Source: a phage
Strand: one strand, 5' to 3'
Sequence record: PZ386952.1
Length of the DNA: 61,166 bases
Shown: positions 1,572-53,570 of the stretch, piece after piece
Layout: each line of letters begins with the position of its first letter
How positions within the stretch are numbered: the first letter of the stretch is position 1
Notes under the pieces: generated by a model
Told to the model about the DNA's origin: nothing
What the model saw: the letters and a program-made list of their open reading frames with translations, nothing else
Databases searched by the model: none
Translations under genes and position numbers: made by a program

Positions 1572-3068
1572 ATGGGTATTGATGCAACTCACCCGCTATA
1601 TGACAAGTGGAAGGACGCATGGGTTAAGTGCAACGATTGCTATGAGGGTGAAGATAAAATTAAGGAAGAAGGTGTTAAATATTTACCGCCTTTAGCTTCC
1701 ATGATTATTGATGGGATGAATAATCCTAATGATTTGGGCTTTCAACGTTGGCTCGCTTATCGTCTGCGTGCCAACTTCCCTGACGATTATTCAAGTGCCG
1801 TTACAAACAATTTAGGTCTGCTGCACCAGAAGCCACCTACAATCCAGCTTCCTCCTGAAATGGAGTACATGCGGGAGCTGTGTACTGCGGACGGTGAAGA
1901 CATTATTGCTCTGCTACGTCGCATCAACGAAATGCAGTTAAAAAATGGACGTTTGGGCTTGCTGCTGGACTTGCCAAAAGGTGAGGATGTAAATAACAGA
2001 CCGTATATTAGCGTTTATGATGCTTTATCCATTATCAACTGGGATGATGGTAAAGATGAATTAGGCAATATCAACTTGAACATGGTTGTTCTGGATGAAA
2101 GCGGTCCTGTACGTGTCAATCAGTTTGACTGGAAAGAAGAGAAGCGTTATCGTGTTCTGCAATTAGGTCCAATGGACACAGATGAAGTTGCAGGTGGGGC
2201 GGTCTACTCTCAACATCTGTTTATTAACAATACCAATTATGATGAAGGGCAAATGATTGCTCCTTATTATAAAGGTAATACGCTGGATGAAATACCTTTC
2301 CAGTTTGTCAATACAACAGATATTACCCCAGCACCGGAAGCACCGCCATTGTTGGGTCTTGCTAACATTTGTCTAAGCATGTACCGTAGTGACGCGGATT
2401 ACCGCCAAAGCTTGCATATGCAGGGTCAGGACACCTTAGTTGTTGTTGGTGGTACTGGGGAGAATGGGGATAAAGCCCCTCAACGCATTGGTCCTGGCGC
2501 TGTCATTAACGTTGCTATTGGTGGTGACGCTAAATATGTAGGTGTTAGCGGTGACGGTTTGTCCGAGCAACGTCTCGCACTAGCAGCGGATAAGCAAGAA
2601 GCCCAAATTAAAGCCGGGCAAATGGTAAACAACACCAAGAGCACGCAGGAATCAGGCGAAGCTATGAAAACGCGTATTGCTGCGCGTACAGCTAGCCTGA
2701 TTCGAATTGCGTATACTGGTGCGGCAGGTTTGGAAAACTTGCTGAAGGTTTGCGCTAAATGGATGGGTGCTGATCCAGAGAAAGTTGTGGTTAAGCCTAA
2801 TCTTGAATTTACCAAGAGCATGTTTAACGGTCAGGACTTTGTTCAAATTATTACTGCACGCAACCTTAAAGCTCCAATCAGCTTGCAGTCTATTCATGGC
2901 TGGCTTGTTGATCAGGGCTTAACCACACTAAGCTTTGAAGAAGAAATGGCAATTCTTGAGGAAGAGCTTAAGAAGTGGCCTCTGCCTGATGATGCTAAGG
3001 CTGATTTAAACGCAGAGCAGCAAGTAAACAAAGATCCTAAGGAAGACGACGCTTCCGATAAAGAATAG
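1572..3068 (+). CDS. portal protein
   Basis: 498-aa ORF immediately downstream of terminase large subunit; size and synteny; acidic C-terminus. Confidence 0.7.
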   Translation: MGIDATHPLYDKWKDAWVKCNDCYEGEDKIKEEGVKYLPPLASMIIDGMNNPNDLGFQRWLAYRLRANFPDDYSSAVTNNLGLLHQKPPTIQLPPEMEYMRELCTADGEDIIALLRRINEMQLKNGRLGLLLDLPKGEDVNNRPYISVYDALSIINWDDGKDELGNINLNMVVLDESGPVRVNQFDWKEEKRYRVLQLGPMDTDEVAGGAVYSQHLFINNTNYDEGQMIAPYYKGNTLDEIPFQFVNTTDITPAPEAPPLLGLANICLSMYRSDADYRQSLHMQGQDTLVVVGGTGENGDKAPQRIGPGAVINVAIGGDAKYVGVSGDGLSEQRLALAADKQEAQIKAGQMVNNTKSTQESGEAMKTRIAARTASLIRIAYTGAAGLENLLKVCAKWMGADPEKVVVKPNLEFTKSMFNGQDFVQIITARNLKAPISLQSIHGWLVDQGLTTLSFEEEMAILEEELKKWPLPDDAKADLNAEQQVNKDPKEDDASDKE

Positions 3069-3163
3069 TTGCAACTTCCAAATTGATTGGTTTATATTAA
3101 CGAACACGGGGCTGGGACGGCTCAGCCCCAAAAACGTCACACGGGTGACAACGGAGATAAGAA

Positions 3164-4036
3164 ATGCAAAAGAGTTCTGTAGCTATTAGTGTTGGTCTTG
3201 CTCTAATTAATCCACGCGCTCGCGGTGAAGGTGATGTGGAATTGCAATACGAGTATGCATCCGCGGAAGAAATCCCGGCGGAATTTGCAACTCTTTACGC
3301 AGAGCAGGGCGGTAAATACGTTCTTGCAAAAGTCAAAGGTGTAGCACCTGCTGATAGCGTTCGTCGTCTGGAAAGTGCGTTAGCAAAAGAGCGTAACGAT
3401 CATCGTCAGGTGAAACAACAAATTAGCGCACTGGGGCGTCCTGTTGAAGAAGTCCTGGCGGATTTGGATCGTATCCCTGAGCTGGAAGCTGCTGCTAACG
3501 GTAAAGGCAATCCGGAAGACATTGAGAAGATGGTCAAAGCCCGTCTTGCTCCGCTTGAGCGCCAATTGCAAACTGTTATCACCGAGCGTGACACGGTTAA
3601 GCAGGAAATTGAAGGTTACCGCACTCGCGAAACTAAAGCGAAGATTAAAGATGCAGTTATTGCCGCTGCTTCTGGTGCTAAATTGCGTCCATCTGCTATC
3701 GAAGATGCTGTAACTTATGCACAGTTGCAGATGACCGTCGACGAGAATGGCAATGTGGTTACGAAAGATGGGGCTGGTGTAACTCCTTACCTGACTCCGG
3801 CGGATTGGCTGAACGAAATCCTTCCGAAACGTCCGCACTGGGTTGAAGGCTCTGCTGGTGGCGGTGCATCTGGTCCTGGCGCTGGCGGTCATCACGGTGA
3901 AGACCCGTACAGTCACGATGGTTGGAACATCTCTAAGCAGATGAACCTCTGGAAAACTAATCAATCTTTAGCTAAACGCTTAGCTGAAAAGAATGGCGTA
4001 GACCCGCTGAAGCCTGTACGTCCTGCTAAGAAATAA
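3164..4036 (+). CDS. scaffolding-like / head morphogenesis protein
   Basis: 290-aa charged, helix-rich ORF between portal and major capsid genes; RBS GGAGA upstream; Gly-rich C-terminal segment. Confidence 0.45.
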   Translation: MQKSSVAISVGLALINPRARGEGDVELQYEYASAEEIPAEFATLYAEQGGKYVLAKVKGVAPADSVRRLESALAKERNDHRQVKQQISALGRPVEEVLADLDRIPELEAAANGKGNPEDIEKMVKARLAPLERQLQTVITERDTVKQEIEGYRTRETKAKIKDAVIAAASGAKLRPSAIEDAVTYAQLQMTVDENGNVVTKDGAGVTPYLTPADWLNEILPKRPHWVEGSAGGGASGPGAGGHHGEDPYSHDGWNISKQMNLWKTNQSLAKRLAEKNGVDPLKPVRPAKK

Positions 4037-4037
4037 G

Positions 4038-4066
4038 TTGACATCCCGACGTCCCTGATGTTAAGT
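4038..4066 (+). promoter_or_regulatory. candidate sigma70-type promoter upstream of major capsid gene
   Basis: TTGACA (4038-4043), 17-nt spacer, TTAAGT (4061-4066); a 9-bp stem-loop (4052-4060 / 4074-4082) overlaps spacer and 5'UTR. Confidence 0.3.
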
Positions 4067-4158
4067 TTCAACACATCAGGGACACGGGTTCCTAAACAGC
4101 CTTCCACGGGGAAAGGCTACCAACAGTAAACAAATCAATCCTTTTCCTGGAGACAAGT

Positions 4159-5220: not shown

Positions 5221-5251
5221 GGCTTCACTCAACGCCGCGCTGTAGTATTTT

Positions 5252-5277
5252 GGGGACATTTATGTCCCCTCTTTTTT
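5252..5277 (+). terminator. rho-independent terminator
   Basis: GGGGACA-TTTA-TGTCCCC hairpin followed by TCTTTTTT. Confidence 0.7.
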
Positions 5278-5289: not shown

Positions 5290-5613
5290 ATGCGTTATCA
5301 ACGTTATGAACGACACGACTTGATGGAAAAATCGTTGCAGGTGGAGCCAATTTCGATTACTCTCGATCCTGCTAAGATTGACACCACAACTTCAGAAGTA
5401 AAGACGGTTACTGTTAAAATAAACTTTGTCCCGGGCGGAACTACAAACAAAGCGTATAGCGCGTCAGTTGACGGTTCCTCTGCTACAATTAAAGATAACG
5501 GGGACGGTACAATTACTGTAACCACAACCGAAAGCAGTGGTACTTCAAACTTGACAGTAACGTCCAAGGCAAAGGATAGTGTTACTGGTAAATGTGTTAT
5601 TAATGTGACCTAA
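5290..5613 (+). CDS. Ig-like (Big_2-like) domain protein, candidate head decoration
   Basis: 107 aa, Thr/Val-rich beta-strand pattern typical of bacterial Ig-like domains; RBS AGGAGA; just after capsid gene. Confidence 0.5.
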   Translation: MRYQRYERHDLMEKSLQVEPISITLDPAKIDTTTSEVKTVTVKINFVPGGTTNKAYSASVDGSSATIKDNGDGTITVTTTESSGTSNLTVTSKAKDSVTGKCVINVT

Positions 5614-5629: not shown

Positions 5630-6283
5630 ATGAAGACATTAATTGAAGCACTGTTAGAACTTGATCCGGATAACCCGAATCATTGGACCAGCGATGGCTT
5701 ACCTAAAGTTGACGCTCTGCGGTTCGCTACCGCTAACCCGTCTTTAACCCGCGACGATATTACAACTGCCGCTCCGCTGTTTACCCGCGATAACCGCGTG
5801 CTGGAAGAGCCAGAACCAGTGGAACCTGTTAAATCTGCTGATCCAGTTTTACATGAAGCTGTCAAACAGGAGAAAGCTCATGAAGAACAAAAGAAAGTCG
5901 CGGTTGCAACGATGCAAATTGAAGTTAAGATTAGCGAAGCACTGCGTGCTCTTCTGGAGCCGGAAAAAATCGGTGACACTTCCAGCCTAAGCGATGAAGA
6001 GCTAAAAGCGAAGAGCGAAAAGCTTAGCAATGTGGTCAAAGAGATTGCTCACACCAAGCACGCGCTGGAGCTTGCTATTGCAGACGTTCAATCGGATCTG
6101 GATAAGATTATCGTTGAGCAGGAGCGTCGTCGTCCTAAGTCCGGTCTTACTGCAACTCAGATGTATCTTGAAGCGCAGAAAAAACGTAAACCTGAAGACA
6201 TGCTTTCCGACCATCGCTTCCAGAACCCTATTGACGATCCGGTTGCCCGTATGGTTGCACGTAATATGATGCGTCGAGGTTAA
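5630..6283 (+). CDS. hypothetical head-associated protein
   Basis: 217-aa ORF with RBS, in head module; no motif recognised. Confidence 0.4.
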   Translation: MKTLIEALLELDPDNPNHWTSDGLPKVDALRFATANPSLTRDDITTAAPLFTRDNRVLEEPEPVEPVKSADPVLHEAVKQEKAHEEQKKVAVATMQIEVKISEALRALLEPEKIGDTSSLSDEELKAKSEKLSNVVKEIAHTKHALELAIADVQSDLDKIIVEQERRRPKSGLTATQMYLEAQKKRKPEDMLSDHRFQNPIDDPVARMVARNMMRRG

Positions 6284-7719: not shown

Positions 7720-8168
7720 TGCTGGGATACGATTTTATCAATGACGCATTTAATAAGATGCTTCGCGAAGCCGTTGGACCGGATATCGGTATAGCTTGGA
7801 AGAACAAGAAGTTTACACCCAAAGCGAATCAGATGTGGTTAAAGGCAATCAACGCACCTGCATCCACATACGCAGCAACGTTAGGTGACAACGGTCTGAA
7901 TGAAATTCCAGGATTCTATCAAGTCACAGTGTACAGTCCGTTAAACACTGGAACGTCTAAACAGAATCAAATCTTGGATTCCATTCGGAAAAAGTTTAAA
8001 CTGGGCTTGCGTATCCAGTGCCCGGATGACCACACGATACGAATTGTCAGCTTAGACTTTTCGCAGGGTGGACAAACTTCGCTGAATGATTTTACCAAAG
8101 GCGGGGTTGAAGACAACTGGGACGTTAACTTTATTACAATCTATTGGTCGGCTCGTGAGCCGAGGTAA
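7719..8168 (+). CDS. tail terminator protein candidate
   Basis: 149-aa ORF immediately upstream of major tail protein; synteny only. Confidence 0.4.
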   Translation: MLGYDFINDAFNKMLREAVGPDIGIAWKNKKFTPKANQMWLKAINAPASTYAATLGDNGLNEIPGFYQVTVYSPLNTGTSKQNQILDSIRKKFKLGLRIQCPDDHTIRIVSLDFSQGGQTSLNDFTKGGVEDNWDVNFITIYWSAREPR

Positions 8169-8182: not shown

Positions 8183-9106
8183 ATGGCTACAGGTTCACGT
8201 TATTCGTGTTGTTACGTCAAAGAAGATGTGAGCAACACAACTCCAGCAAGCGCGAAGTTTACCCCGTTTCGTGTAACGAGTTCCGGTCTGGATATTAACA
8301 TTGCAACGCTGGAGTCTGAAGAACTGCGTGATGACGCAGAAACCGCAGACTTCCGTCTTGGCGCTCGAAGCGTTGAAGGTACGGTAACGGGCGAAATGTC
8401 CTTCGGTACGTTTGACGACCTCATTGCGGCAGCGCTGCGCGGTGAATGGCAGGAGAACGTCCTTAAAGGTGGTATTGCTCGCCAGTCATTTACTTTTGTA
8501 GACTATAACGCAGATCTGCCATCAGGTAAATACACAATCTATCGCGGTTGTGAAGTTAACAGCATGACTTTCGCATTGTCAGCTGAAAACATGACCACAG
8601 TAGAGTTTGGTATTGTTGGTCGTTCCATGGAAATTGCTGAATCACTTCCTGCCGGTGCTTCCATTAAACCTCGTACAACTTCTTCACCGATGGACGGCTT
8701 CTCCGGTAGCTTGCTGGAAGGCGGTCAGGAAATTAGCGTTATTACGGAAATTGGTCTTACCGTTGAAAACGATATCTCCCCGCGCTTCGTTGTTGGCTCG
8801 AAGTTCTCCATTGAACCGTCTGCTGGTCGCCGTGCTGTAACTGGTACAGCTAACGTTTACTTCCTGGATAACAAACTGCGTAAGAAGTATCTGGATGAAG
8901 TGGAAACCTCAATCAAGTTTGATCTGATTGACCCAAGCAATCCGCAACAAAAATACACTGTGGAAATCCCTCGCGTGAAATTCACTGAAGCTCCACGCCC
9001 TATTGACGGTGAAGGGGATATCATGCTTAATATGGGCTACCGCGGATTGCTGGACCCAACAACCGCAAGTTCCATCAAAATTACCCGCGTTGTAGCGGGA
9101 GGATAA
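8183..9106 (+). CDS. major tail protein
   Basis: 307-aa ORF with RBS AGAGAGGA, directly upstream of chaperone/frameshift and tape measure genes. Confidence 0.6.
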   Translation: MATGSRYSCCYVKEDVSNTTPASAKFTPFRVTSSGLDINIATLESEELRDDAETADFRLGARSVEGTVTGEMSFGTFDDLIAAALRGEWQENVLKGGIARQSFTFVDYNADLPSGKYTIYRGCEVNSMTFALSAENMTTVEFGIVGRSMEIAESLPAGASIKPRTTSSPMDGFSGSLLEGGQEISVITEIGLTVENDISPRFVVGSKFSIEPSAGRRAVTGTANVYFLDNKLRKKYLDEVETSIKFDLIDPSNPQQKYTVEIPRVKFTEAPRPIDGEGDIMLNMGYRGLLDPTTASSIKITRVVAGG

Positions 9107-9115: not shown

Positions 9116-9523
9116 ATGACCGACACCAAAAAAGCCAAAGTTGCAGTAGCTAAAAGCTTTCGTGATTTTAAAACTGTGAGCCGGGCAAATGATCCGGCAA
9201 ACACTAAGCCTATGAATGTGGTTATTCCTGGTGTAGGCGACACTGGCGAAAAACTCTACATTCGTAGCCGCTACTGCACAGAGTACCGTGATGCTGAACT
9301 GAAAGCGCAACGTCAACTGTTGGCACTTATGCAGGGTAAAGACGGTGAAGTAACAGATGCTATGAAGGAAGACATCCTTACCCGTTCACTGTGTAACCTT
9401 GTAGCAGGTTGGACATTTGATGAGCCGCCGACTGTTGACAACGTGTTTGAGTTCTTAACGGAGAACCCAACTGTTCGAGAAGATCTTAACGTATTTGCCG
9501 CTAAAGATAGTAATTTTTTCTAA
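9116..9523 (+). CDS. tail assembly chaperone (lambda G-like)
   Basis: 135-aa ORF between major tail and tape measure genes; ends DSNFF* inside a slippery U-run. Confidence 0.65.
   Translation: MTDTKKAKVAVAKSFRDFKTVSRANDPANTKPMNVVIPGVGDTGEKLYIRSRYCTEYRDAELKAQRQLLALMQGKDGEVTDAMKEDILTRSLCNLVAGWTFDEPPTVDNVFEFLTENPTVREDLNVFAAKDSNFF
9514..9520 (+). promoter_or_regulatory. -1 ribosomal frameshift slippery heptamer T_TTT_TTC
   Basis: X_XXY_YYZ heptamer in the zero frame of the chaperone ORF, 1 nt before its stop codon. Confidence 0.6.
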
Positions 9524-9921: not shown

Positions 9922-12900
9922 TGGCCGAAACCGCTTCGCTAGTAATCAGAGTTGACGCGAGAGGGATTAGTACCGCGGACTCTATGTTGCGGAACCTAGC
10001 GCGTACAGGTGACACAGCGGAGCGGTCTGCTCAACGTGTTACCTCCAGCTATAAAACATTGTCTAACACATCTAACGAACTTGCAACTGTCACAAGTCGT
10101 TTAGATGCTGCAATTTTAGGAATGGTTAGCGTTGACACTATTAGCCGTGTTATTTCGCTATCGGACTCCTGGACTATCCTCACCAACAAACTTGAACTAG
10201 CTCGTACTGGTAATGAAACCGTTGCGGATGCGCAGCAACGCGTGTTTGATATTGCCCAGCGGTCACGTACAAGCTTGGAAGCAACTGCAACTCTGTATTC
10301 CCGTCTCCAGCGTGCGATGAAGAATACTGGTATGACTGGTATGGAGCTTGGACGTATCACGGAAACAATCAACAAAGCAATGATCGTTTCTGGTGCAACG
10401 TCCCATGAAGCAAGTGCTGCTCTTATTCAGTTTTCGCAAGCAATGGCATCCGGTGTTCTGCGTGGAGATGAATTCCGCTCTGTTGCAGAACAAGCTCCGC
10501 GCTTAACTCAAATCATGTCCGATTCTTTAGGTGTTACCATTGGACAATTGCGCGAACTGGCTTACAGCGGCAAGTTAACCTCAGATGTGGTTATCAAATC
10601 GTTGTCTGGTGCTGCGGATACAATTGATAAAGAATTTAGCCGCACTATGCCAACGTTCAACCAGCAATGGACAGTTGCAACAAACAACCTGACTAAGTTT
10701 ATGGGCGAATCCCAAAAGACTCAAGGTGCTGTTGCGGCATTGGGACAGACGTTTGTTGCATTATCCGAAAACTTAGGAACGGTTGTAACGGTTGGTTCAG
10801 CTTTAGCCACAGTGATTACCGCCCGTATCATTACGGCAATGCTTGCTAAGACTAAAGCGTCTATAGCTGCTGCAAAAGCATCTCAGATGGAAGCTGCACA
10901 AACTGCGGCAACTACGGCGGTGATGCAAAGCTCTATTGGCGTTACCGCACAGAAAGCGGCTGCGGATCGTGCCGCTTCGCTTGCAGCGTTACAGGTTGCT
11001 CGCGGGTCATTAGCGGTTGCTAAGGGTACGGCAGCGGAAGCAGGTGCTCGTCTTGCGCTTATTAATGCTACCCGTGCACATTCTGCGGCAATTATGGCGG
11101 ACGTACAAGCGCGGCAGGCGCTCAATGCTGCTCTTAATGCAACTGTACCAGCCGCAAGCCGAGCAGCTACAGCAATGAGCGTGCTGCGCGGTGCTATGGG
11201 GTTAATTGGCGGTCCTGTTGGTGTAGCAATGCTGGCAGCGGGTGCAATTTACTCCTATAAAGCGTCGCTGGAAGCAGGTCGTGCGGAAAACAATCAGTTT
11301 GCGGATAGTGTTGATTCTGTACGCGAGAAACTGATGCAGATGACAGAAGCTCAGTTGGCAGCTAACGCAGTTAAAGCTCGCGCAATACTTCCGGAACTTG
11401 AAGAGCAAATGAAGCGCGAGCAAACCGCTCTTAAATCTGCAACGGAAACGCAGAAGTTCTATGAAGCACAATTGAAGCGTCGAGCTGCATCCGGTCGAGA
11501 TACTGCTAGTGCGGAAAAGAACTTACAAATTGCTACGGATAACGTCAAGCTAGCTGCTGAACGCGCGGAAGACGCACAACGTCGATATAACAATGTGCTT
11601 GAAATGACAAGCCCCGCTATAGAGAAAATAATCCCTCTAGCGCGTCAGCTTGCTGCGGATATGAAGGCTGTCCTTAACATTAAATCCGGTCCGTTAATTG
11701 ACGAAAAAGTATTGGATCGCTTTAAAGGTCAACTCGGAGACGTTAACCGTGAGATTGATGTTAACACGGTTAAAGGTGCTGGCAACGCGCGTCAAGCTGC
11801 AATCCTTAGAGGTCTGTATCAAACACTAGGTAAAGATGCAGACACCTACGGAAGTCTTATTCGCAAAGTAGCTATGGGTCAGGACGTTAGCTCAGAGGCA
11901 ACAAGCGAATCCGCTAAAGAGCTTGTTAAATATGCTCAAGATTTAGCCCAAGCTCTTGGCAAAAACTACGATCTTGAGGAAGCAGAGAAAAACCGAACCA
12001 AAGCTACAAAAGACGCTATTAAGGCGGATCAACAAAACGCTAAGGTTATTGACAATTTACGAAACAAGCTTAACGAAGTAACCACAGGAGTTAAGGAAAA
12101 CGCTAAAGCGAAAGCGCAAGCGGTGGCACTTAATAAGCTCAATGCGTCTGCAACGGCTGAGGAAAAAGCGGAAGTTGTTAGACTTGCTGCTGCAATCTAC
12201 GATGCAGAAGAAGCTCAAAAGAAACTGGACGAGCGTAAGAAGAATCGTAAGTTTGCTCAGGGTTTGTTAGATGAAGGTATGACAGACTATGAAAAAATCG
12301 CGTACGAGCAAAATACAAAGATTGCAGAGCTTAATGCAAAACAGCGAGCGGATGATTTAGCTTACTATCAGCTTTACGAAGATGCTAAAACACAAGTCCT
12401 GAAGAAAGCAAGTATGGAAAGGGAAAACCTGGATAAAGTTCTTATGAACCGAATGATATCCTTTTCTCAGGAATCATTGGGTGTTATATTGTCAGGTCTG
12501 GAAGAAGGTGTTAGTAAACAGAACTTTATTTATAAAGCAATGTTTGCAGCACAGAAAGCAATGCAAATTCCATCAATTCTTGCTAACACGGAAACAGCGG
12601 CATCTGCGGCACTTGCATGGGGTACACAGCAAGGCGGGGCTACAATGGGCGCAGCTATGGCTGGTATAGTAAAAGCTATGGGTTATGCGTCGGCTGCTAC
12701 TGTGGGTGGCTTAGCAATCGCTGGTATGGCACATGACGGTATTGATAATGTTCCGCGCGAAGGTACATGGTTATTGGATAAAGGTGAACGTGTACTTAAT
12801 GCTCCGTCTAATGACAAGTTAAACCGCTTCCTGGATAGCCAAGCTTCACAACAAGGTGGCGTGAATATGTCCGGTGGTGTTAGCATTGTTCAGTATATCA

Positions 12901-13040: not shown

Positions 13041-13625
13041 ATGCTCATTTGGCCCGAAGAGCTTAGACCATCTGAAATGGAATGGTATCTAGTTTCAAAC
13101 GCTGTAGAATTTACAAGCCCCTTCAATGGGGCTTCCCAAACTGTGTCCTATCCTGGATCGCGATGGGAAGCTACGCTAACCTTTAGCAATTTAAATGACT
13201 GGCAATCCAGAAAGCTTGAATCGACGTTAGCTAAACTTGATGGTAAAGCTGGTCGAATCATGCTTCAGGATTTTGGTCGATGGGGGCGTGCGCCAATCGG
13301 AGTACCTGTGGTTAATGGTGCAAACAATACAGGGACAACTTTATCTACCAAAGGATGGAGCCCGAACCGCAAGGTTTTATGGGAAGGGGATTATATTGCT
13401 GTAAACAATGAATTGAAATTAATAACGGAAGATGCTTGGAGCGATGATTCCGGTAACGTAATTTTAAACATTGCACCTATGCTGAGGAGTATCCCTCCAA
13501 ATGGCGCGAAGATTGAAACTCAGAAGCCACAAGGAGCTTTCCGGTTAGCAGAAAACACTAACGGAGTTAAGCGTCAACCTGCTTTTAATAACTCCTTTAC
13601 TTTAAAATTTTCGGAGGCATTCTAA
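13041..13625 (+). CDS. minor tail protein (lambda gpM position)
   Basis: 194-aa ORF immediately after tape measure; synteny. Confidence 0.4.
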   Translation: MLIWPEELRPSEMEWYLVSNAVEFTSPFNGASQTVSYPGSRWEATLTFSNLNDWQSRKLESTLAKLDGKAGRIMLQDFGRWGRAPIGVPVVNGANNTGTTLSTKGWSPNRKVLWEGDYIAVNNELKLITEDAWSDDSGNVILNIAPMLRSIPPNGAKIETQKPQGAFRLAENTNGVKRQPAFNNSFTLKFSEAF

Positions 13626-14209: not shown

Positions 14210-14618
14210 ATTGCCAGGCTGGCAAACACGTTTATTAACCACAGTAAAGGAGTTGTCATCGACTCCTTTTTCTTGGGGCGAAAACGATTGCTGTACATTT
14301 GCTGCTAAATGTGTTGATGCGCAGTATGGTACTAATATCTATGAACAAATAGCAGGCAGATATAGCACTGAACTTGGAAGCAAACGGTTTTCAATTGAAA
14401 AGGTTGGAACAGCTTACCTTCCAACATTGCTGGATGCTTACCTGAGCAAGCGGGTTGATAAAAACTTTGCGCAACGCGGCGATGTGGTTACATTTGAGGG
14501 AGCATTGGGCGTAACTGCTGGCATATTATGGACTGGATATGTATGGGCTATGGGTCCGAACGGTGTGGAAACTTTCCCGCTTAATAAGATCGAAATTACG
14601 GATATTTGGAGGGTCTAA
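14184..14618 (+). CDS. tail assembly protein, gpK-like with NlpC/P60-type Cys motif
   Basis: ORF-track start at 14034 has no RBS; ATG at 14184 has GGGGGAG RBS (alternative ATG at 14202); NDCCTF cysteine motif; synteny. Confidence 0.45.
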   Translation: MRQDSHMSKLPGWQTRLLTTVKELSSTPFSWGENDCCTFAAKCVDAQYGTNIYEQIAGRYSTELGSKRFSIEKVGTAYLPTLLDAYLSKRVDKNFAQRGDVVTFEGALGVTAGILWTGYVWAMGPNGVETFPLNKIEITDIWRV

Positions 14619-18270: not shown

Positions 18271-18381
18271 TGTGGTTAAAGATGATAGACAATATTGTTT
18301 TATATTCTAATTTAATTTACCATATTTGTATGCCATGGTGCATCCATTAATTGATCAACTCTGCAAGACAAGAGGTAAAAA

Positions 18382-22664: not shown

Positions 22665-22685
22665 TCGTTGAAGTGTGGTTAAACT

Positions 22686-31084: not shown

Positions 31085-31119
31085 GGTTTACAGTTTCCTT
31101 GTTGTTAATGTGGTCATAC

Positions 31120-36130: not shown

Positions 36131-36441
36131 TAGCGGTATACCTGCGTAGCGTTGATGAGCGCTTCCAACTTGTGAGCAATATAGGACAAGTGATTACCGT
36201 AGTCCTGATTGTTTTTGTACTCAAACCAGGCTTCAAAGAGTTTAACACCTTCATGTTCGCCAACACGAAATGTATCATGAGTTGTGGTTACGACAGATTC
36301 TCCACTATGCGGATGCGCACCGCTAATAGAGACAACAGTACCAAGATCAATAACCGTACCTCCTTTTAACTGATAAAGAGCGCAACCATTATCAACTTCA
36401 AGTCCGCGAACAATACGATTTGCCATTTGTCTACCCTCCAA
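36130..36441 (-). CDS. hypothetical protein
   Basis: 103-aa ORF, stop overlaps next start. Confidence 0.4.
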   Translation of the reverse strand: MEGRQMANRIVRGLEVDNGCALYQLKGGTVIDLGTVVSISGAHPHSGESVVTTTHDTFRVGEHEGVKLFEAWFEYKNNQDYGNHLSYIAHKLEALINATQVYR

Positions 36442-38462: not shown

Positions 38463-38464
38463 AA

Positions 38465-41112: not shown

Positions 41113-42027
41113 TTAATCTAAAGCCTGATCACTTTCATCGCGGAAATGCATAAAGTTTGCAAAACGCGGTTTATCTTTCACGCCATGAGGGAAGTGTTTA
41201 TATGAAATAGTCCGACCTTTAATTTTGTCAGGGTTATTCCAATAATAAATCTTATCCTCTTGCGTTAGTTTACCAGGACTAACGTTGATGGTATTGCCCG
41301 TCTTAACGTCTTTACAAACAAGCGTCCCGATCATACCGTTAGGAACTTTATTCTCCTGATGTGAAGATCGTGTAGTCCTTCCCAGCTCGTTAACAGTAGC
41401 TTCATTAAGATTAGTTTCACCCTCAATAATATCGAGGACAATAGCGTCTTCCTGAATAAAGCGTTTAATACGAAGATATCCACCTTCGCGAACTGTACCG
41501 CGCCCATGCTTATAGGGCTTACCTGGATCACGGATAATGATACCTTCATAACCCATATCAAGCCAAATGTTTTCCCAGTAAAGCAGCTCTTGCAAAGACT
41601 TAACCACATACATTGGCACAACTTGCAGGTCGAGCAATTCGCCTTTAGCGTGCTGTGTGGTTATAAAGTCTTTCATCATGTTGTAGCGTGCTTCATAGCC
41701 CAGCTCTGCAACACTTTCCGCGCACAGATCAAAGATGTGCCATTTCAGGAATGGTTCACCTTCAATTGTGTTTACCGCACTGGTTGTTTTACGGCACAGA
41801 TCCGGGTCCGTTTCAACTCCTGCCGCAAGCTCACCGTCATAGCCCATGTATTGAGGGCCGCTGAAAATTGCGCTTGTATGGCGGTTTTTAAACAGCTTTA
41901 AGCTGCGCCCTACTATTTGCCCATCCGGATTTAAACCGCGCACACCGTCGATTTTAGGCAGTATACAGCACGGAAACTTAATCTTTTCTTCAACAGCGTC
42001 AGTCGCTAAATGTGGTTTGAATGCCAT
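41113..42027 (-). CDS. ATP-dependent DNA ligase
   Basis: KIDGVRG (KxDG motif I); ATG at 42027 with GAGG RBS (track start 42039). Confidence 0.75.
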   Translation of the reverse strand: MAFKPHLATDAVEEKIKFPCCILPKIDGVRGLNPDGQIVGRSLKLFKNRHTSAIFSGPQYMGYDGELAAGVETDPDLCRKTTSAVNTIEGEPFLKWHIFDLCAESVAELGYEARYNMMKDFITTQHAKGELLDLQVVPMYVVKSLQELLYWENIWLDMGYEGIIIRDPGKPYKHGRGTVREGGYLRIKRFIQEDAIVLDIIEGETNLNEATVNELGRTTRSSHQENKVPNGMIGTLVCKDVKTGNTINVSPGKLTQEDKIYYWNNPDKIKGRTISYKHFPHGVKDKPRFANFMHFRDESDQALD

Positions 42028-43494: not shown

Positions 43495-43535
43495 TTTAGT
43501 TTCCTCTTGGGCGGATTGACCGCCCGTTAATGTGG

Positions 43536-43946
43536 TTAAGCTTTATTTGGAACAATTTCCAGAGACGCAGAACCAACTTTCGATTCAACGCACTGGTTAA
43601 AGACTGCGGCCTGCTCCGCTGTAAGTTTACGCCAAGCCGCGACTTTCAATACAGGTTTATTTTCCACAAGCTGATCAACGTTAACACCAACTTTAATCAG
43701 ATCGCCCAGGATTCCGTTAAGACTTGGAAGGTCAATCTTACGATCAATCTTGTGGGTCATTTTCATAACCCCGCCAGTAATTTCAACTTTATTAGTCCCC
43801 TCAGACGGCGCTGGGAAATAGGACTTAATAATCTTATCACGGAGTGCTCGCTCGCGAGCTTGAAGCTTTTGTAATTCTGCTTTGGTTTTATACCACTCAA
43901 TAACATCTGCTTCGGTTGCTTGTACTGCTTTATCTGCGTCGAACAT
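43536..43946 (-). CDS. hypothetical protein
   Basis: ATG at 43946 with RBS GAGGA (track start 44006); 136 aa. Confidence 0.4.
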   Translation of the reverse strand: MFDADKAVQATEADVIEWYKTKAELQKLQARERALRDKIIKSYFPAPSEGTNKVEITGGVMKMTHKIDRKIDLPSLNGILGDLIKVGVNVDQLVENKPVLKVAAWRKLTAEQAAVFNQCVESKVGSASLEIVPNKA

Positions 43947-44009: not shown

Positions 44010-44603
44010 TTATTTTTTATCTAAATGACGTGAAGTCATAATTGGATGCAAAGACACTTCTTCCTCTGCTGTAACCACATTGGTAGATGTTCCGGTAGAT
44101 CCGAAACCGTTAGCACCGCGCTCGGTAGCCTTAAGTTCGTCTACTTCTACCAGTTGCACGCAAGGCACCTTAATAAGCATAGCTTGCGCAATACGGTCAC
44201 CATGACTAACAGTGAAGCCCCAATCGTTATCAATGGTGAGTTTAACCTTAACTTCCCCAGTGTAGTCGCTGTCAATAACGCCTACACAGTTAGCTAAGCG
44301 AACGTCATTTTTAAACCCGTGACCGCTACGGGAATAGACCATAAGCGCATACCCTTTAGGGATATCAAATGCTAAACCTGTTCGAAATATGTGGTCACCT
44401 GAGAAAAGGACTTGCTCACAACCGTCTTCACACTTAAGATCCGCGTGTAGATCAAAGCAAGCTGCCCCAGTAGTAGCGAACACTGGTAGAATTGCGGTGT
44501 CTGTTAAGCGTTTTACCCCGAGGAGAGTTGGCGCAAAGGATGTAGCAGTTATGCTAGAATTGGTTATAGAAATAGTGTGCATGTTATTTAATACGTCAGT
44601 CAT
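44010..44603 (-). CDS. dut: dUTP diphosphatase
   Basis: Trimeric dUTPase motifs: AAGFDL-like AACFDL, RSG, GVIDSDYTGE, GDRIAQ, RGANGFGSTG. Confidence 0.85.
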   Translation of the reverse strand: MTDVLNNMHTISITNSSITATSFAPTLLGVKRLTDTAILPVFATTGAACFDLHADLKCEDGCEQVLFSGDHIFRTGLAFDIPKGYALMVYSRSGHGFKNDVRLANCVGVIDSDYTGEVKVKLTIDNDWGFTVSHGDRIAQAMLIKVPCVQLVEVDELKATERGANGFGSTGTSTNVVTAEEEVSLHPIMTSRHLDKK

Positions 44604-45183: not shown

Positions 45184-45496
45184 TCTCTTGATTGTCGGAT
45201 AGCTTACTTTGACTGCCGTCTTCGTCTATCCTGGCCTACTTGTACAGCCTCGCCAAAGGCTGGTGACGGTTTGGTACATCTGGCGCCGTCGCGTTAAACA
45301 TCGTTCACATCGTTCAGTAAGTTGCGGGTTTACCCTGTCCGCTCCAGGAAGCCCAGCGAAAGTAGTTGCTGTAAGGAGGTACAGCTACCGCTTTCAAGGG
45401 CTTGAGTTAAGCATCGTTCACTAAGTTAATGTTGTTAAATTGTTAAACCTCGTTAACTGTGGTTATCTTAAAGGATGCAGTCTTGAATGGCAAGCT

Positions 45497-47679: not shown

Positions 47680-50016
47680 TTATTTGCTTAAGTCTTTGAA
47701 AACACTCTCAATCGACTCGTCTATATACCATCCCAACCCCCTGAAATTACGCTTCAATGCATCCTCACGCGTAACCGGAACAAGCGCGCCCATGTCTACA
47801 AGTTGTTTGATAGTGAGGTCTGTTGCCGTACCTGCTCCCATCCTGTGATTCTTGAATGCTGCTAGCCCGTAGGTTCTGCGTGTGATAGTTGCCTTCGGAA
47901 TAATACCGTCAACGCGAAGCTCCTTACGATCACATGCAATTTTACCGCCAAGATAGTCTTTGCAGACCTGGCAAATAGCCTTCACGCGCGTTTCATCATC
48001 ACCACCAATAGTACCTTTTTCCCATGCGTTGATCATGATGTCCTGCCCATGCGTAACAAAATCTACCGCCCATTGCATGTGATTGGGCTGAACGACAGGA
48101 TTGATCCAGTTTTCCCCTACCGCTAGCAGGGACGCAAGGCGCAGAGCTTTAAGGTGCGCACGGTTCCATGGCTGACGAATAGCTTCGTCTTTAGTTGCGT
48201 TAATGTGTTCATCACACAACAAGTTAAACTCCCGCTCAATCCTTGCAGCTTCCGGGCTTAACTGGACGGTAACGGTCTGGAACTTCGCCATTGTTACTAA
48301 CGTGTGGTTAACAAGATGGCACACCATGTCCTTTAATTGCTGAGGCATTGTGATTTCAGGATTCTCGTTTGCAGGAACTCGATCCCCTTCATATTGCACA
48401 ATGTGGAAACGGGACAAGAAACCGTCTTCCATCATTTCACGTGTTAACGCTTCAAAGAATGTGTCCGGTGTTGTTTCGCCCAAAACGCTGAACGCCACCC
48501 CTTCCATTGTCTTGGTATTATTGGCCTTATCAGAATATCCAATACCGCCAACAACATCCATCGCACCAGATTTTTGATACACATCTGTAATAGTTTGCTT
48601 CAAGGTGTAGTTCGCAGTGCCTGGCTGAGCTGTCGCCATACCTTTAATGGTTTTACCAAACTCACCGTTAATATTCACAAACGAAGTATGATCCGCAAAA
48701 CTTTTACGCAAGGCAGGACCGGAAGCATAGTTAGTCATGTCTACAAATTCATGCACTTGCGGCAATTGCTCGCCTACCTGCTTACAAATATAACTGGGCC
48801 CAGCGTGAAGCATTTCTTTACCCACACCTGATCGGGCAATAAGCACAAAGTAACCGTTCAACCCTGTGTTGGTGATAGTATTCCACACCTTGCCGCATAC
48901 GCCGGACAAGAATGCTAACGATGCAGTGATTGCAATTTCTTTCACCGGACGCTGCGATGCTTTGTAGATATACTTCGCAAGCTCACCAGCAAGACCCGGC
49001 GGCCATTCAATAGCGGTTGCATCAATGGACGTGCTTTCAGCAACTACAATTTCACCAGACGGGCTAACTGTGGTTACAGGCATTTCCGTTACCTGCTGCA
49101 TTGTGCTGTGTGCGGCTTGCATACGGGCAGCGTAATCCCGCGCCAGCGCCGCTACGTTCTCCTGAGCAATGCGTTCACGCTCCATGCGACCGCGGCACAT
49201 ACGCAAACAACGGTCAATATGAACGTTGTTCTTGTTAGCCTTCTCACGTTTACCCAGTGCACTGTAACGGAATAAACGACGACATTGCTCATTACTTTCC
49301 GTATAAAAAGCATACATGGAAATAAGAGCAAGATCTGCTTCAGACTGGGAAGGGAATCCCATTTCAACCCATTCCCCGTTGAATAACCGTGCATACTTGT
49401 CACCGTTGTCTGCTTCCAGTGCCCGCTGGTGAATAGTTGCGTCGTCTTCTACTGGATCTTTTTCTACCAGTTCGATTTCATATGTCTTGCGCTGAAGATC
49501 AATTTCATTCACAAGCATAGTAAGATAATGATCACGTTCGGCAACTGGTTTGTTATAGACAGGATTGCCCGTGCAGATAATAAAACGCTCCTGACTATAA
49601 ACCTCGACACCATCACGTCGACGACCTTTACCGATGTTGCCTCTTAACCACAGGTGAACGCCCAATCCTGAGCGACTTACTTCGGTGTAAGTATCGAACG
49701 CGGTCATGATCTGTTCAAAGCGGCGCAACTGTTCCGGCGTCGTGTGCTTCTTGGGATCCGGTTCATTGGTTGCGTTCTTCACATCCAGATCGATGCAGGT
49801 GAACGGGTCTTGTGCAGTAAGCACGAAGCCGATGTAAGGTTTGTTGAAATGCGCGGCGCAACCTTTAGCAGCTTCAAATGTCATAAGCATATCCGGATCG
49901 GTAACGTCTGCCACCATCAAACGTCCGATATCGTTGTCCCACACAAGCGGCTTTTTATCCGCATCGGCGACCGCCCATTGTGGGAAAGCTTTAATTTCAG
50001 CGGGAAACAGTTCCAT
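47680..50016 (-). CDS. DNA primase (prim-pol N-terminal domain with C-terminal NTPase-like region)
   Basis: 778 aa; CIDLD and SGLGVHLW prim-pol-like motifs; RBS AAGGT. Confidence 0.6.
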   Translation of the reverse strand: MELFPAEIKAFPQWAVADADKKPLVWDNDIGRLMVADVTDPDMLMTFEAAKGCAAHFNKPYIGFVLTAQDPFTCIDLDVKNATNEPDPKKHTTPEQLRRFEQIMTAFDTYTEVSRSGLGVHLWLRGNIGKGRRRDGVEVYSQERFIICTGNPVYNKPVAERDHYLTMLVNEIDLQRKTYEIELVEKDPVEDDATIHQRALEADNGDKYARLFNGEWVEMGFPSQSEADLALISMYAFYTESNEQCRRLFRYSALGKREKANKNNVHIDRCLRMCRGRMERERIAQENVAALARDYAARMQAAHSTMQQVTEMPVTTVSPSGEIVVAESTSIDATAIEWPPGLAGELAKYIYKASQRPVKEIAITASLAFLSGVCGKVWNTITNTGLNGYFVLIARSGVGKEMLHAGPSYICKQVGEQLPQVHEFVDMTNYASGPALRKSFADHTSFVNINGEFGKTIKGMATAQPGTANYTLKQTITDVYQKSGAMDVVGGIGYSDKANNTKTMEGVAFSVLGETTPDTFFEALTREMMEDGFLSRFHIVQYEGDRVPANENPEITMPQQLKDMVCHLVNHTLVTMAKFQTVTVQLSPEAARIEREFNLLCDEHINATKDEAIRQPWNRAHLKALRLASLLAVGENWINPVVQPNHMQWAVDFVTHGQDIMINAWEKGTIGGDDETRVKAICQVCKDYLGGKIACDRKELRVDGIIPKATITRRTYGLAAFKNHRMGAGTATDLTIKQLVDMGALVPVTREDALKRNFRGLGWYIDESIESVFKDLSK

Positions 50017-50589: not shown

Positions 50590-50776
50590 TCCGACCAGCG
50601 TGCAACATTAAGACAGGCTCTGCAACTTCGCGCACGTAAACGTAAACGTTAGCAATTTTAACTTCGCCCGGCAGTTTACCGCGCAGCGAACACAACTTGC
50701 GACGGCTAAGACCGAAGCGGTTTTCAATTTCTGATGTGGTTATGTATTTAAGATCAAATTCTTTTTGACAGTCCAT
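50561..50776 (-). CDS. small HTH-like DNA-binding protein
   Basis: 71 aa; ITTSEIENRFGLSRRKLCSLR helix-turn-helix-like segment; GGAGGT RBS; first gene downstream of large non-coding region. Confidence 0.4.
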   Translation of the reverse strand: MDCQKEFDLKYITTSEIENRFGLSRRKLCSLRGKLPGEVKIANVYVYVREVAEPVLMLHAGRIVSEVGRGS

Positions 50777-50882
50777 ACCTACCTCCTAACAGCACTATAC
50801 ACAATCCATAGTAATGCAGCCACAATTATTCCACATGAAGTTATGATGTGAGCGGATTGTTAATATATAACCACATGTGATG

Positions 50883-50975
50883 GAAAGTTTTGGGTAGGAA
50901 TAGTTGGTGCTCCACAGTTTGCACAATGTGACGGAAAGTTTTGTGAGTTTTGCAAAGTTTTGCGAAGTTTTGTGG
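50883..50975. repeat. iteron-like direct repeats (A)AGTTTTG
   Basis: Five copies, four of them at 9-11 bp spacing (50936-50974). Confidence 0.7.
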
Positions 50976-51129
50976 TGCCACTGTTGCTAAAAACTTTAAT
51001 AAAAACAATAAGTTGGTGCAGTAAGTTTTTGCGTTTTGGGGTAAAACGCATTTTTTACCCTAACACCCAAATCCCGACTGTTAGTAAAAAACGTATATAA
51101 ATCAATAGCATAGATACTAAATGAGTAGC

Positions 51130-51495
51130 GATTGGAATGGGTAGAAATCCAAATGATGGAAGTGGAATAAATTATTCCTACTTGATAGAATAATGGAATC
51201 GGTACTCCAGAGCGCAAAAACCTAAAACTTTCAGTCAACAGGCTAAAAACGGATAGAAACTAAAAGTTAATAAGTAATACCATAACTATATATAAAATAA
51301 GGATTTATTATTAATGTATATAGTACCTATTGGTATTATTTGAATGTTTTTTGGTCATTGTTAAAAAGTCCCAAAACTCACAAAAAGTGAAAGAATACAA
51401 TTCGTGACAGGATTGTTAATGGAATATGGTGTATGGATATACAGTATTATTCCAGATTCCGGAATAATTGGAATAATGGAATAAATTATTGAACT
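51130..51495. repeat. TGGAATAA direct repeats and 15-bp palindrome GGAATAA-A-TTATTCC
   Basis: Palindrome at 51164-51178; tandem GGAATAATTGGAATAATGGAATAAATTATT near 51461-51490. Confidence 0.7.
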
Positions 51496-51605
51496 ATTGT
51501 GATCGGAAGGTATATCAAGCTATAATGCGCTTAATCGCGGGATATTGGAGGAGGACTTTATTGCGCGGTTAACCGGACCAGTAGGAGGGCTGGCCCGGAA
51601 GTAGT

Positions 51606-51932: not shown

Positions 51933-51934
51933 GT

Positions 51935-52111: not shown

Positions 52112-52168
52112 TTTCGTTACTCCTAGGGCTCCCGCAGAAGCCCGTTGGTTGAACAGTGTGGTTATAGA

Positions 52169-52783
52169 TTATGCGTCCAGTCCGTTGTATTTGCGCCAGG
52201 CGTAGAACTGAATGGCCACCGTTGTTCCGTTGTAAGAAGGCATTGCAGCTTTCATTTCTTTCAGCCCCGGCGTGCGGCCCAGTTCCTTCAGAAGTTTGTC
52301 GCCCATTGCCCACACTTCGGCGGTTTTTCCTTTGAGAGGCTTGCGAGCGCCATTTTTGAAATCACAGCGAGCAGCTTTTGCATTCTGTTTTGACGAGGCA
52401 GCTTTTGGCTCTTCAATTTTGATTTCAGAAACCTGCGTGGCAGCTTTTGCATGTTTCATATCTTTCTCTTCCTCCTGCTCCAGAGCTTCGAGGCAGCTTT
52501 TGACGATTTCCGGATTTACCATCGGGCGCAGTACCGAGACGCTGGCAGCTGGCGCGGCGGTCGGTGCCGGGACTTTCTGCTCAGGCTGTTGCGCTTTTTC
52601 ATGATCGCGCAGCACCTGAAGAACTTCCTTCTCGATAATGTAAAAACCGATCTCGTCCTGATGGATAAGCTGTTCGTGTGCGTCGCGTGCAACCTGGCCC
52701 CAGCGGGTCTTCAGGGCGCGGCGTGCATTCGTTTTCATGGTGTAGCGCATTTTGTCCTGTTCGCGGTGAGTTACTTTAGACAT
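52169..52783 (-). CDS. hypothetical protein
   Basis: ATG at 52783 with AAAGGAG RBS (track start 52843); Ala/Pro/Lys-rich middle. Confidence 0.4.
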   Translation of the reverse strand: MSKVTHREQDKMRYTMKTNARRALKTRWGQVARDAHEQLIHQDEIGFYIIEKEVLQVLRDHEKAQQPEQKVPAPTAAPAASVSVLRPMVNPEIVKSCLEALEQEEEKDMKHAKAATQVSEIKIEEPKAASSKQNAKAARCDFKNGARKPLKGKTAEVWAMGDKLLKELGRTPGLKEMKAAMPSYNGTTVAIQFYAWRKYNGLDA

Positions 52784-52856
52784 GGTATAGCTCCTTTCGT
52801 TAAAGTTAGTTTGCTTATTATTGCCCACCGTGATAGTAGGCAATGTATAAGAAAAC

Positions 52857-53105
52857 TTATTGCACGATTGCTACGAAATCGGCGGTTGCGATATCCATGC
52901 TTGCGAAAGCAACGATGCCATAGTCGGTGTCGTTTTCGGCGTTAAACGCTTTGAGGAACTGCTGTACCGCTGCTTTATGGTTAAGCGTTACGTCGATAGC
53001 ATAGTCCCAGCTATAGACTTTGCGCTTGCCAAAACCTTTAACTGCAATGCGAGCGCCTTTAGTGTTGGTTGGTGCCAAAAATTTGGTGACGATAGAAGTA
53101 GCCAT
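52857..53105 (-). CDS. hypothetical protein
   Basis: 82-aa ORF. Confidence 0.4.
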   Translation of the reverse strand: MATSIVTKFLAPTNTKGARIAVKGFGKRKVYSWDYAIDVTLNHKAAVQQFLKAFNAENDTDYGIVAFASMDIATADFVAIVQ

Positions 53106-53174
53106 GATGTATATCCTCGTTTTGTTTAAGTTGACTTATTATTGCCCAGTCAGATCAACTAGGCAAGATATAAA

Positions 53175-53327
53175 TCACTTAATTTGTACCAAATCGTATT
53201 CTTTGTAAATTTCGCTAATGTACATATCGAACTGGCCCATTAAGAAGATTTCGGCTTCCTCCCAGCTTGGAGCAGATACATAACCAGCTATTTTACCGGA
53301 CTCGAGTTCCACTAATTTGAATTCCAT
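53175..53327 (-). CDS. small hypothetical protein
   Basis: ATG at 53327 with AAGGG RBS; TGTGGTTAAG copy lies just upstream on + strand. Confidence 0.3.
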   Translation of the reverse strand: MEFKLVELESGKIAGYVSAPSWEEAEIFLMGQFDMYISEIYKEYDLVQIK

Positions 53328-53570
53328 GATGTAACCCTTAATGTGGTTAAGCAGTATTGCTTTGTTGAAGTAATAATAGCCTTGCATCGTGATATTGAAT
53401 AGGCCAAAAGTGCTATTTTGATATTGTTTTGCATCTAGTGAAATTTATGCTTGCCCTGCATGTTTAGCACTAATGGCCTAACTAACATCACACCATCTGG
53501 AGTATTCGCGCGGGCGCACACATACATATAAAGCTGCCAAATATTTTTTATAAAAAGATGCAAAAAGGTG

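Follow-up and report, generated by a model that had tools for sequence, protein, structure and literature searches.

An evenly spaced octamer in a Seuratvirus genome as the probable priming site of an AEP-type primase-helicase

Introduction

Sequence-specific priming by archaeo-eukaryotic-type primases (AEP) that carry a helix-bundle domain (HBD) is already known and includes an 8-nt site in phage NrS-1. According to PMC8718748, the NrS-1 prim-pol needs a template recognition sequence of 8 nt, 5'-TTTGGTTA-3', with 5'-GTGG-3' or 5'-GTGA-3' serving as a minimal site. Here we describe an octamer, TGTGGTTA, that recurs throughout a phage DNA of 61,166 nt (record PZ386952.1; this whole stretch is called the window below), matches TTTGGTTA at 7 of 8 bases, and includes GTGG. 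The window is a CAjan-like Seuratvirus of the Queuovirinae, which are here coliphages with 7-deazaguanine-modified DNA, and has 92–94% identity to GottfriedDienst, CAjan, and Seurat. On the evidence of sequence analysis, we put at roughly 70% the probability that these octamers are genome-encoded priming sites at which the phage's AEP primase-helicase serves lagging-strand synthesis.

Between the NrS-1 enzyme and the proposed reader in the window, homology covers the AEP domain and the first part of the HBD. The settings differ: in NrS-1, a temperate phage, the sites lie in one origin-like region and the enzyme is the replicative polymerase, whereas in the window, a lytic phage with a separate family-B polymerase (PolB) and clamp, the sites occur genome-wide at about 1 per kb. 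In the pRN1 system, the HBD itself binds a GTG template motif (PMC8718748, PMC7102993), and ORF904 of pRN1 is likewise an AEP primase-helicase fusion in which the HBD sets the template specificity and the primer starts outside the motif (PMC8718748). It differs in that the motif is a trinucleotide and is read by a plasmid replication protein. We know of no genome-wide arrangement of the pRN1 GTG sites.

Among more distant systems, the T7 primase gp4 recognises sites with a 5'-GTC-3' core ((G/T)GGTC, GTGTC), and T4 gp61 recognises 5'-GTT/GCT-3'. Like the sites proposed here, these are template signals for lagging-strand priming in which the 3' base or bases are recognised and left uncopied, and a minor form of our octamer, TGTGGTCA, includes the T7 site TGGTC. 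However, the T7 and T4 enzymes are unrelated DnaG/TOPRIM primases with a zinc finger, and their sites of 3–5 nt are frequent by chance. To our knowledge, neither genome-wide installation nor even spacing of the sites has ever been described for T7 or T4. For the recognition sites of the two primases, see also PMC12839067.

Results

The repeat unit is an octamer

The earlier note on this DNA had reported a strongly over-represented decamer with at least 10 copies. The excess is real: the window holds 14 copies of TGTGGTTAAG, 9 of them on the + strand and the other 5 on the − strand, where 0.16 would be expected, and none of 100 shuffles reached 14. All ten of the positions it gave were correct on recount, as were three near variants at 22674, 45458, and 52157, and four copies were added, at 2918–2927 (−), 26307–26316 (−), 37515–37524 (+), and 49643–49652 (−). 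The real repeat unit, however, is the octamer TGTGGTTA, of which the decamer is the most frequent extension. The octamer is present in 53 copies (30 on the + strand and 23 on the − strand), compared with 2.6 expected under a third-order Markov model, an approximately 20-fold excess. The third-order model was used here; maximal-order Markov k-mer statistics masked the motif, which is accounted for by its own sub-words.

T precedes GTGGTTA in 53 of the 54 copies in the window. The base on the 3' side of TGTGGTTA is A in 27 copies, T in 15, C in 11, and G in none, and the commonest two-base extension, AG (14/53), yields the decamer. The minor form TGTGGTCA occurs 8 times (1.7 expected), giving 61 TGTGGTYA sites in total; apart from this form, the single-mismatch variants of TGTGGTTA showed no enrichment in the window. 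The octamer supplies 53 of the 584 GGTT tetramers of the window. The sites are as follows (position, strand, form).

681–688, +, octamer
2786–2793, +, octamer, decamer copy
2920–2927, −, octamer, decamer copy absent from the earlier note
3754–3761, +, octamer
5519–5526, −, octamer
7834–7841, +, octamer
9217–9224, +, octamer
10586–10593, +, octamer
12079–12086, −, octamer
13307–13314, +, octamer
14236–14243, −, octamer, intergenic
14483–14490, +, octamer
15646–15653, +, octamer, decamer copy
16978–16985, +, octamer, decamer copy
18271–18278, +, octamer, intergenic
20519–20526, −, octamer
20843–20850, −, octamer
21140–21147, +, octamer
22674–22681, +, octamer, intergenic
24396–24403, −, octamer
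24631–24638, −, octamer, intergenic
25525–25532, +, octamer
26309–26316, −, octamer, decamer copy absent from the earlier note
27224–27231, +, octamer
27959–27966, −, octamer, decamer copy
29084–29091, +, octamer, decamer copy
29547–29554, −, octamer
31425–31432, −, octamer
32957–32964, +, octamer, decamer copy
33136–33143, −, octamer
34014–34021, +, octamer, decamer copy
34368–34375, −, octamer
36283–36290, +, octamer
36527–36534, −, octamer
37515–37522, +, octamer, decamer copy absent from the earlier note
38980–38987, −, octamer
41601–41608, −, octamer, decamer copy
41656–41663, +, octamer
43531–43538, +, octamer, decamer copy, gene boundary
44072–44079, −, octamer
45458–45465, +, octamer, intergenic
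48303–48310, +, octamer
49069–49076, +, octamer
49645–49652, −, octamer, decamer copy absent from the earlier note
50735–50742, +, octamer
50868–50875, −, octamer
52157–52164, +, octamer, intergenic
53342–53349, +, octamer, decamer copy
54686–54693, +, octamer
56435–56442, −, octamer
57015–57022, +, octamer
57959–57966, −, octamer
60259–60266, −, octamer
6031–6038, +, minor variant TGTGGTCA
8027–8034, −, minor variant TGTGGTCA
8592–8599, −, minor variant TGTGGTCA
16486–16493, −, minor variant TGTGGTCA
31109–31116, +, minor variant TGTGGTCA
44390–44397, +, minor variant TGTGGTCA
57376–57383, −, minor variant TGTGGTCA
60084–60091, +, minor variant TGTGGTCA

Selection acts on the DNA word

Relative to the genes, 25 of the 53 octamers are in sense orientation, 20 are antisense, and 8 are intergenic, and all the frames free of a stop codon are used. 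Shuffling synonymous codons gave 12.2 ± 1.9 octamers and shuffling the codon order gave 9.8 ± 1.3, of which about 8 in the codon-shuffled sets are intergenic copies that were left unshuffled. Because these codon-preserving shuffles fall far short of the observed count, selection is on the DNA word rather than on an encoded peptide or the choice of codons. The three in-frame Val-Val-Lys copies that the earlier note described do exist, but codon usage, which it had raised as a possible contributor, does not account for the excess (approximately 10–12 copies in the shuffles versus 53). Both shuffles, together with the spread over frames and strands, rule out codon usage or a peptide motif as the cause.

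Compared with CAjan, the motif positions have diverged by 2.6% and the flanks of ±30 nt by 9.5% (Fisher p 1e-5), so that the sites change 3–4 times more slowly than their flanks. Among the sites that could be aligned to CAjan, 34 of 38 were intact, versus 17 expected, and two further Seuratvirus loci showed the same trend of slow divergence at the motif. The octamer sites are thus under purifying selection. The earlier note held that similar counts in codon-preserving shuffles, or a lack of conservation in related genomes, would speak against the motif; the shuffles gave the low counts above, and the motif is kept across relatives.

Two familiar classes of element were considered and rejected. 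A promoter is ruled out, since the sites face both ways about equally often relative to the genes and are mostly intragenic; in the window, their placement was unrelated to where genes start or which way they run. The DnaA box, TTATNCACA, shares CCACA/TGTGG with the octamer and matches TTAACCACA at 8 of 9 positions, but the octamer has A where position 4 of the box is invariably T, and the words of the sister lineages, TGACCACA or TGCCCACA, resemble the box less. The resemblance is therefore imperfect, as had been remarked before, and a DnaA box is ruled out by the position-4 mismatch, by the number of true boxes (2 versus 3 expected), and by the other variants used in the relatives.

Sites are evenly spaced on each strand

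The sites are spaced more evenly than expected from random placement, with a coefficient of variation (CV) of the gaps of 0.60 versus 0.97 (P < 0.001) and a longest gap of 2845 nt versus approximately 5100 nt expected. CAjan, the coliphage 9g, and the Providencia phage PSTCR4 showed even spacing as in the window, and no cluster of octamers like that at the NrS-1 origin was found in the window. The strand labels also alternate in excess: there were 44 runs in the window against 31 expected (z 3.4), the Vibrio phage BP15 had 34 sites in 30 strand runs, and the pooled Stouffer z was 8.3 for ten cultured lineages and 5.75 for 31 metagenomic loci. A circular shift of the sites of one strand against those of the other reproduced this alternation (Stouffer 1.3), which means that the even spacing holds for either strand taken alone and rules out inter-strand coordination or obligatory site pairs. 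In the window, the mean gap was approximately 1.75–2.0 kb on the + strand and 2.2–2.5 kb on the − strand (CV 0.44–0.67). In the pooled lineages, gaps shorter than a quarter of the mean separated 1 of 81 same-strand neighbours but 33 of 225 opposite-strand neighbours (p 3e-4). This pattern points indirectly to a reader that engages a single strand at a time and is required on each of the two.

An excess on the + strand had been claimed from 8 of 10 decamers, but it is not significant for either unit (decamer: 9/14, binomial p = 0.42; octamer: 30/53, p = 0.41). The argument that the earlier note built on it was wrong because it rested on an incomplete count, and the real pattern is the even spacing per strand.

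Close opposite-strand pairs had a preferred order: when ten lineages were pooled, 24 of 112 gaps from a + site to a − site were short, compared with 9 of 113 from − to + (Fisher p 0.005). Examples of the former in the window are 2786/2920, 32957/33136, 36283/36527, and 50735/50868. Under the primase model, this order would give divergent priming.

The motif family extends over seven host genera

When genomes were searched blind for their most over-represented octamer, the top word was a member of a TGTGG-N-Y-A family, TGTGGTTA, TGTGGTCA, TGTGGGCA, TGTGGCCA, or TGTGGCTA, in phages that infect seven genera (Escherichia, Providencia, Klebsiella, Pseudomonas, Vibrio, Stenotrophomonas, and Burkholderia) with a GC content of 0.37–0.58. 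The family occurs with or without 7-deazaguanine genes. The enriched words in individual phages are listed below.

CAjan: TGTGGTTA, 41 in 50 kb
PSTCR4 (Providencia): TGTGGTTA, 34
9g and BRET (Nonagvirus): TGTGGTCA, 30 and 22; TGTGGTTA, 17 and 10
Kpn2-P2 (Klebsiella): TGTGGTCA
PAJD-1 (Pseudomonas, 58% GC): TGTGGTCA
Siara (Stenotrophomonas): TGTGGTCA
BP15 (Vibrio): TGTGGTCA and TGTGGCCA
BcepGomr (Burkholderia): ATGTGGCTA, 11 (0.1 expected), and ATGTGGTCA, 9
RHEph05 (Rhizobium): CTGTGG[T/A]C
Halfdan (Lokivirus) and Septimatrevirus C1: TGTGGGCA, 20 copies per complete genome; no TGTGGTYA

We also examined 60 IMG/VR contigs of at least 12 kb, picked solely for a homologue of the window's primase. 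TGTGG was contained in the top word of 34 of the 60 contigs and in one of the top three words of 43, although some contigs are near-duplicates and these counts are not fully independent; octamers containing TGTGG or its complement make up 0.8% of all octamers. Neither of the two control phages, coliphage T1 (3 and 1 copies) and the Sphingomonas phage PAU, was enriched in the motif. A host factor as the reader is ruled out by the host range, the lineage-specific variants, and the T1 control.

Several observations concern the words themselves. A is preferred at position −2 in all lineages (30/61 in the window, 30/35 in PSTCR4, and 21/27 in Halfdan and C1 together), and G at position +9 after TGTGGTYA occurs at 0/61 sites in the window, 8/47 in 9g, and 6/35 in PSTCR4. 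Rarer variants were seen in some IMG/VR contigs (L069, L087, L090, and L074/L076), namely TGTGATTA (10 versus 1.0 expected), TGTGGACA, TGTGGATA, and TGTGGCCA, and could help to map HBD specificity. T1, whose primase is P4-alpha-like, has enriched octamers of its own, TGACTGGT (17 versus 2.0 expected), CTGACTGG (15 versus 1.7), and GTGCTATT (16 versus 1.7), which may reflect a comparable effect on another word. In Escherichia phage KarinMuster_Bas82, GGTGTAGGCGCTG, TGCTACAGGTG, and AGCGGCAGCA have 10–13 copies each versus <0.5 expected, and these longer words indicate a dispersed repeat.

A predicted primase-helicase is the candidate reader

In the window, the structural genes occupy the + strand at 1–24 kb and a replication and modification block the − strand at 24–53.6 kb. 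The phage encodes Sak4, a Cas4-domain exonuclease, RusA, PolB, and a clamp. The proteins that bear on the octamer are as follows.

47680–50016, − strand: AEP-type primase-helicase of 778 amino acids (aa), proposed reader of the octamer (Pfam, PDB, BLASTP, hhalign)
49240–49998, − strand: its AEP catalytic domain and the start of the HBD, aa 7–259, homologous to NrS-1 N300 (hhalign, Pfam, invariant residues)
48055–48528, − strand: its DUF3987 NTPase/helicase-like region, aa 497–654 (Pfam; Walker-A-like G397, G399, and K400 invariant)
36486–38468: superfamily 2 (SF2) helicase
38465–39373: Cas4-domain exonuclease

Pfam identified PF22763 (NrS1-1_pol-like_HBD, aa 224–259) and DUF3987 in the protein encoded at 47680–50016, and its C-terminal half, with DUF3987, also has a conserved GxGKE. 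The PDB matches were to the NrS-1 prim-pol (6A9W, 6K9A, and 7RR3; E ~4e-7) and to the SaPI5 primase-helicase (7OLA; E 1e-10). hhalign aligned aa 7–255 with the NrS-1 prim-pol (99.6% probability, E 1e-23), and BLASTP gave 25% identity to it (E 4e-12), with both alignments reaching into the HBD segment. Residues D78, S114, G117, G119, H121, E138, and Y140 are invariant in nine homologues, including NrS-1, and the C-terminal NTPase half has no detectable sequence similarity to the NrS-1 prim-pol's C-terminal part. Judged by these matches, the protein has the AEP core and HBD of the NrS-1/pRN1/SaPI5 kind and is a predicted primase.

Every motif-positive genome that was examined encodes PolB, the clamp, the SF2 helicase, the Cas4-domain exonuclease, Sak4, and the primase's N-terminal portion; ligase, RNase H, DUF7173, RusA, and dUTPase are each missing from some of them. 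BcepGomr has the motif and a homologous primase N-terminus but a different helicase half. 9g and PSTCR4 both show 50–58% identity to the window in PolB, the clamp, the helicase, the Cas4 exonuclease, and Sak4, but their primases are 32–35% (9g) and 48–51% (PSTCR4) identical to that of the window. The ratio of words in TTA to words in TCA is 17:30 in 9g, 34:1 in PSTCR4, and 53:8 in the window, although it is 9g that has the window's host and GC content. When primase N-termini were clustered, the TTA-only state was limited to the Seuratvirus/Vid5/PSTCR4 clade (GC 0.37–0.48), and TCA was dominant elsewhere; GCA went with the Halfdan and C1 primases, which form neighbouring clusters. The discordance between 9g and PSTCR4 and the N-terminus clusters link the motif's variable positions with the primase.

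Two primase 'alleles' occur in Seuratvirus (window, 47680–50016, and locus L001, 46566–48908). They are 77% identical overall, with 99% identity in the N-terminal 300 residues (AEP and HBD) and all the divergence confined to the helicase half, a distribution that suggests intragenic recombination.

Sites in the NrS-1 genome

The origin-like region of NrS-1, which is iteron-rich and lies just 3' of the prim-pol gene, includes TGTGGTTAcactTTTGGTTAcact, with TGTGGTTAcactTTTGGTTAcactTTGGGTTAcact on the minus strand and AAAGTGTGGTCA and AAAGTGTGGTTA on the plus strand, and holds exact copies of TGTGGTTA and TGTGGTCA. TTTGGTTA occurs once in the NrS-1 genome, at 17198 on the minus strand, within the segment 17055–17460. 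TGTGGTTA is at 17210 (−) and 17438 (+), in this mid-genome region, and in two copies elsewhere. The oligonucleotide described in PMC7102993 carries TTTGACCA, and the paper gives two mid-genome copies of the site, one per strand; the published statements on the 8-nt site are not in full agreement with the NrS-1 genome.

A candidate origin or early control region

A mostly non-coding, AT-rich stretch at 50780–51600 adjoins the leftward block of replication genes and contains five AAGTTTTG iterons (50935–50975). It also contains direct and inverted repeats of GGAATAAT at 51171 (−), 51446 (−), 51461 (+), and 51470 (+), and a palindrome, GGAATAAATTATTCC, at approximately 51166–51180; GGAATAAT has 10 copies genome-wide versus 2.5 expected. 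The octamer pair 50735 (+)/50868 (−) marks the left edge of the stretch, with 50868 just inside it. This region is a candidate origin or early control region.

Discussion

The mechanism that we propose is as follows. As the fork exposes single-stranded DNA (ssDNA), the HBD of the primase would bind the template word 5'-TGTGGTYA-3', and the AEP domain would start a primer on the base or bases that immediately adjoin the site on its 5' side, with synthesis proceeding away from it; PolB and the clamp would then extend the primer. Selection would install and maintain a site about every 2 kb per strand, with either strand usable as the lagging-strand template. An array of this kind would have to be installed by selection because an 8-base need is met by chance only 2–3 times in 61 kb. 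Okazaki fragments of bacteria and phages are usually given as 1–2 kb long, and the interval of approximately 2 kb is in this range. Sites on both strands are expected for bidirectional or recombination-dependent replication. Among the candidate roles that the earlier note had listed for the repeat (DNA binding, nicking, or priming), the evidence favours priming and disfavours the other two.

Several points weigh against this interpretation. The attribution to the primase rests on the NrS-1 precedent and a single discordance, that of 9g versus PSTCR4, and profiling by itself cannot single out the primase because the core replication proteins all co-occur. The homology to NrS-1 is remote, at the 25% identity given above, and the score of the PF22763 HBD is marginal (28.4 bits versus a cutoff of 27.9). 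The 5' flank has A at −2 and A/T at −1, not the pyrimidine expected for a purine-initiated primer. No bias relative to the replication origin was detectable, the location of the origin not being established, and the distant AEP+HBD relatives Bas82 and Proteus 2207-N35 showed no enrichment of TGTGG. The NrS-1 genome itself has four octamers without genome-wide enrichment; this fits the model, however, because the prim-pol is the replicative polymerase there and a site is needed only to initiate.

The octamers could instead be a Chi-like signal, read on ssDNA by the phage SF2 helicase and Cas4-domain exonuclease or taming a host exonuclease, which would switch degradation to recombination or protect a linear genome from both ends. 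This predicts a strand-specific, enriched, and evenly spaced 8-mer on both strands and fits the statistics equally well, and the helicase and exonuclease are present in every motif-positive genome. Chi and the uptake sequences of bacteria (USS/DUS) are likewise specific 8–10-mers, at one per kb or per few kb, conserved and intragenic in permissive frames. Their sequences are different, however, and their readers are RecBCD/AddAB or the competence machinery; Chi is also skewed with the direction of replication, whereas the octamers are about equal on the two strands. E. coli Chi is GCTGGTGG, to which the octamer is unrelated, and hosts in seven genera exclude a host Chi. The reading is without precedent in sequence or in biochemistry, no sequence-reading subunit is evident, the motif class tracks the primase and not the helicase or exonuclease in the 9g/PSTCR4 comparison, and the near-identity to the defined sites of a homologous primase would be a coincidence. 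We therefore regard a Chi-like signal as unlikely.

Less likely still is a site for a phage protein that binds duplex DNA, for instance a regulator of transcription, a nucleoid or condensation factor, or a protein that assists packaging. The conservation and even distribution of the sites are in keeping with such a protein, as is the high specificity implied by the lack of enriched single-mismatch variants. An orientation-blind reader of duplex DNA would, however, treat + and − copies alike, so the strongly non-random strand labels and the per-strand spacing rule count against a function that is independent of orientation and point instead to a strand-specific reader. The sites are also unrelated to gene starts or orientation, and small DNA-binding candidates such as DUF7173 are not found in all motif-positive genomes.

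Site-specific nicking, as in T5 or in the Pseudomonas phage tf/Rembedalsseter group, is very unlikely. Nick motifs are strand-specific, intragenic, and conserved in related phages, but the documented motif is on one strand only, clustered, and present at approximately 13 per genome (PMC11780129). The window has 61 sites on both strands, some of them separated by just 55–134 nt from a site on the other strand, where nicks would fragment the genome; no nickase candidate was identified, and the native nanopore study of CAjan mentions no nicks (PMC7544227).

A target or landmark for DNA modification (DpdA/preQ0 or another hypermodification) is largely refuted: the octamer includes GGTT, at which CAjan nanopore data show a partial, unexplained rise in signal, but it contains neither of the main CAjan DpdA motifs, GA and GGC (PMC7544227), neither over-representation nor even spacing would be expected of modification targets, and the complete Halfdan and C1 genomes, which lack DpdA and the que genes yet carry 20 copies each of the sister octamer TGTGGGCA, rule out a link to 7-deazaguanine.

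Returning to priming by the AEP primase-helicase, a search of the literature found no earlier account of a genome-wide, selected array of primase sites spaced per strand or of its clade-wide variation. We consider the balance to lie slightly in favour of a broader statement, namely that a large clade of lytic siphophages has hard-coded its lagging-strand start points, with an AEP primase that demands an 8-base word and genomes that keep this word about every 2 kb per strand. The clade in question comprises the Queuovirinae, Lokivirus, Septimatrevirus, Beaumontvirinae, BcepGomr-like phages, and many uncultured relatives. If this is true, Okazaki starts in these phages would be deterministic and readable from sequence, and positions 6–7 of the word would co-evolve with the primase HBD. 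The starts would be predictable in tractable coliphages (the BASEL Queuovirinae and CAjan), in which primer placement and the control of fragment length would become testable, and the natural variants TTA, TCA, GCA, CCA, and CTA would be a means of mapping how an HBD reads DNA. A dominant TGTGG-N-Y-A word would serve as an annotation rule that flags this replication module in metagenomic contigs, and in phage engineering, recoded or deleted stretches could cost the phage priming sites that it requires. Primases are commonly held to require no more than 3–5 bases, to which genomes need not adapt. Here, the imprint of selection for an 8-base demand would be a strong one, seen in dozens of phage lineages with many hosts, and this would be the first case found in which the specificity of a primase has visibly shaped the sequence architecture of whole genomes.

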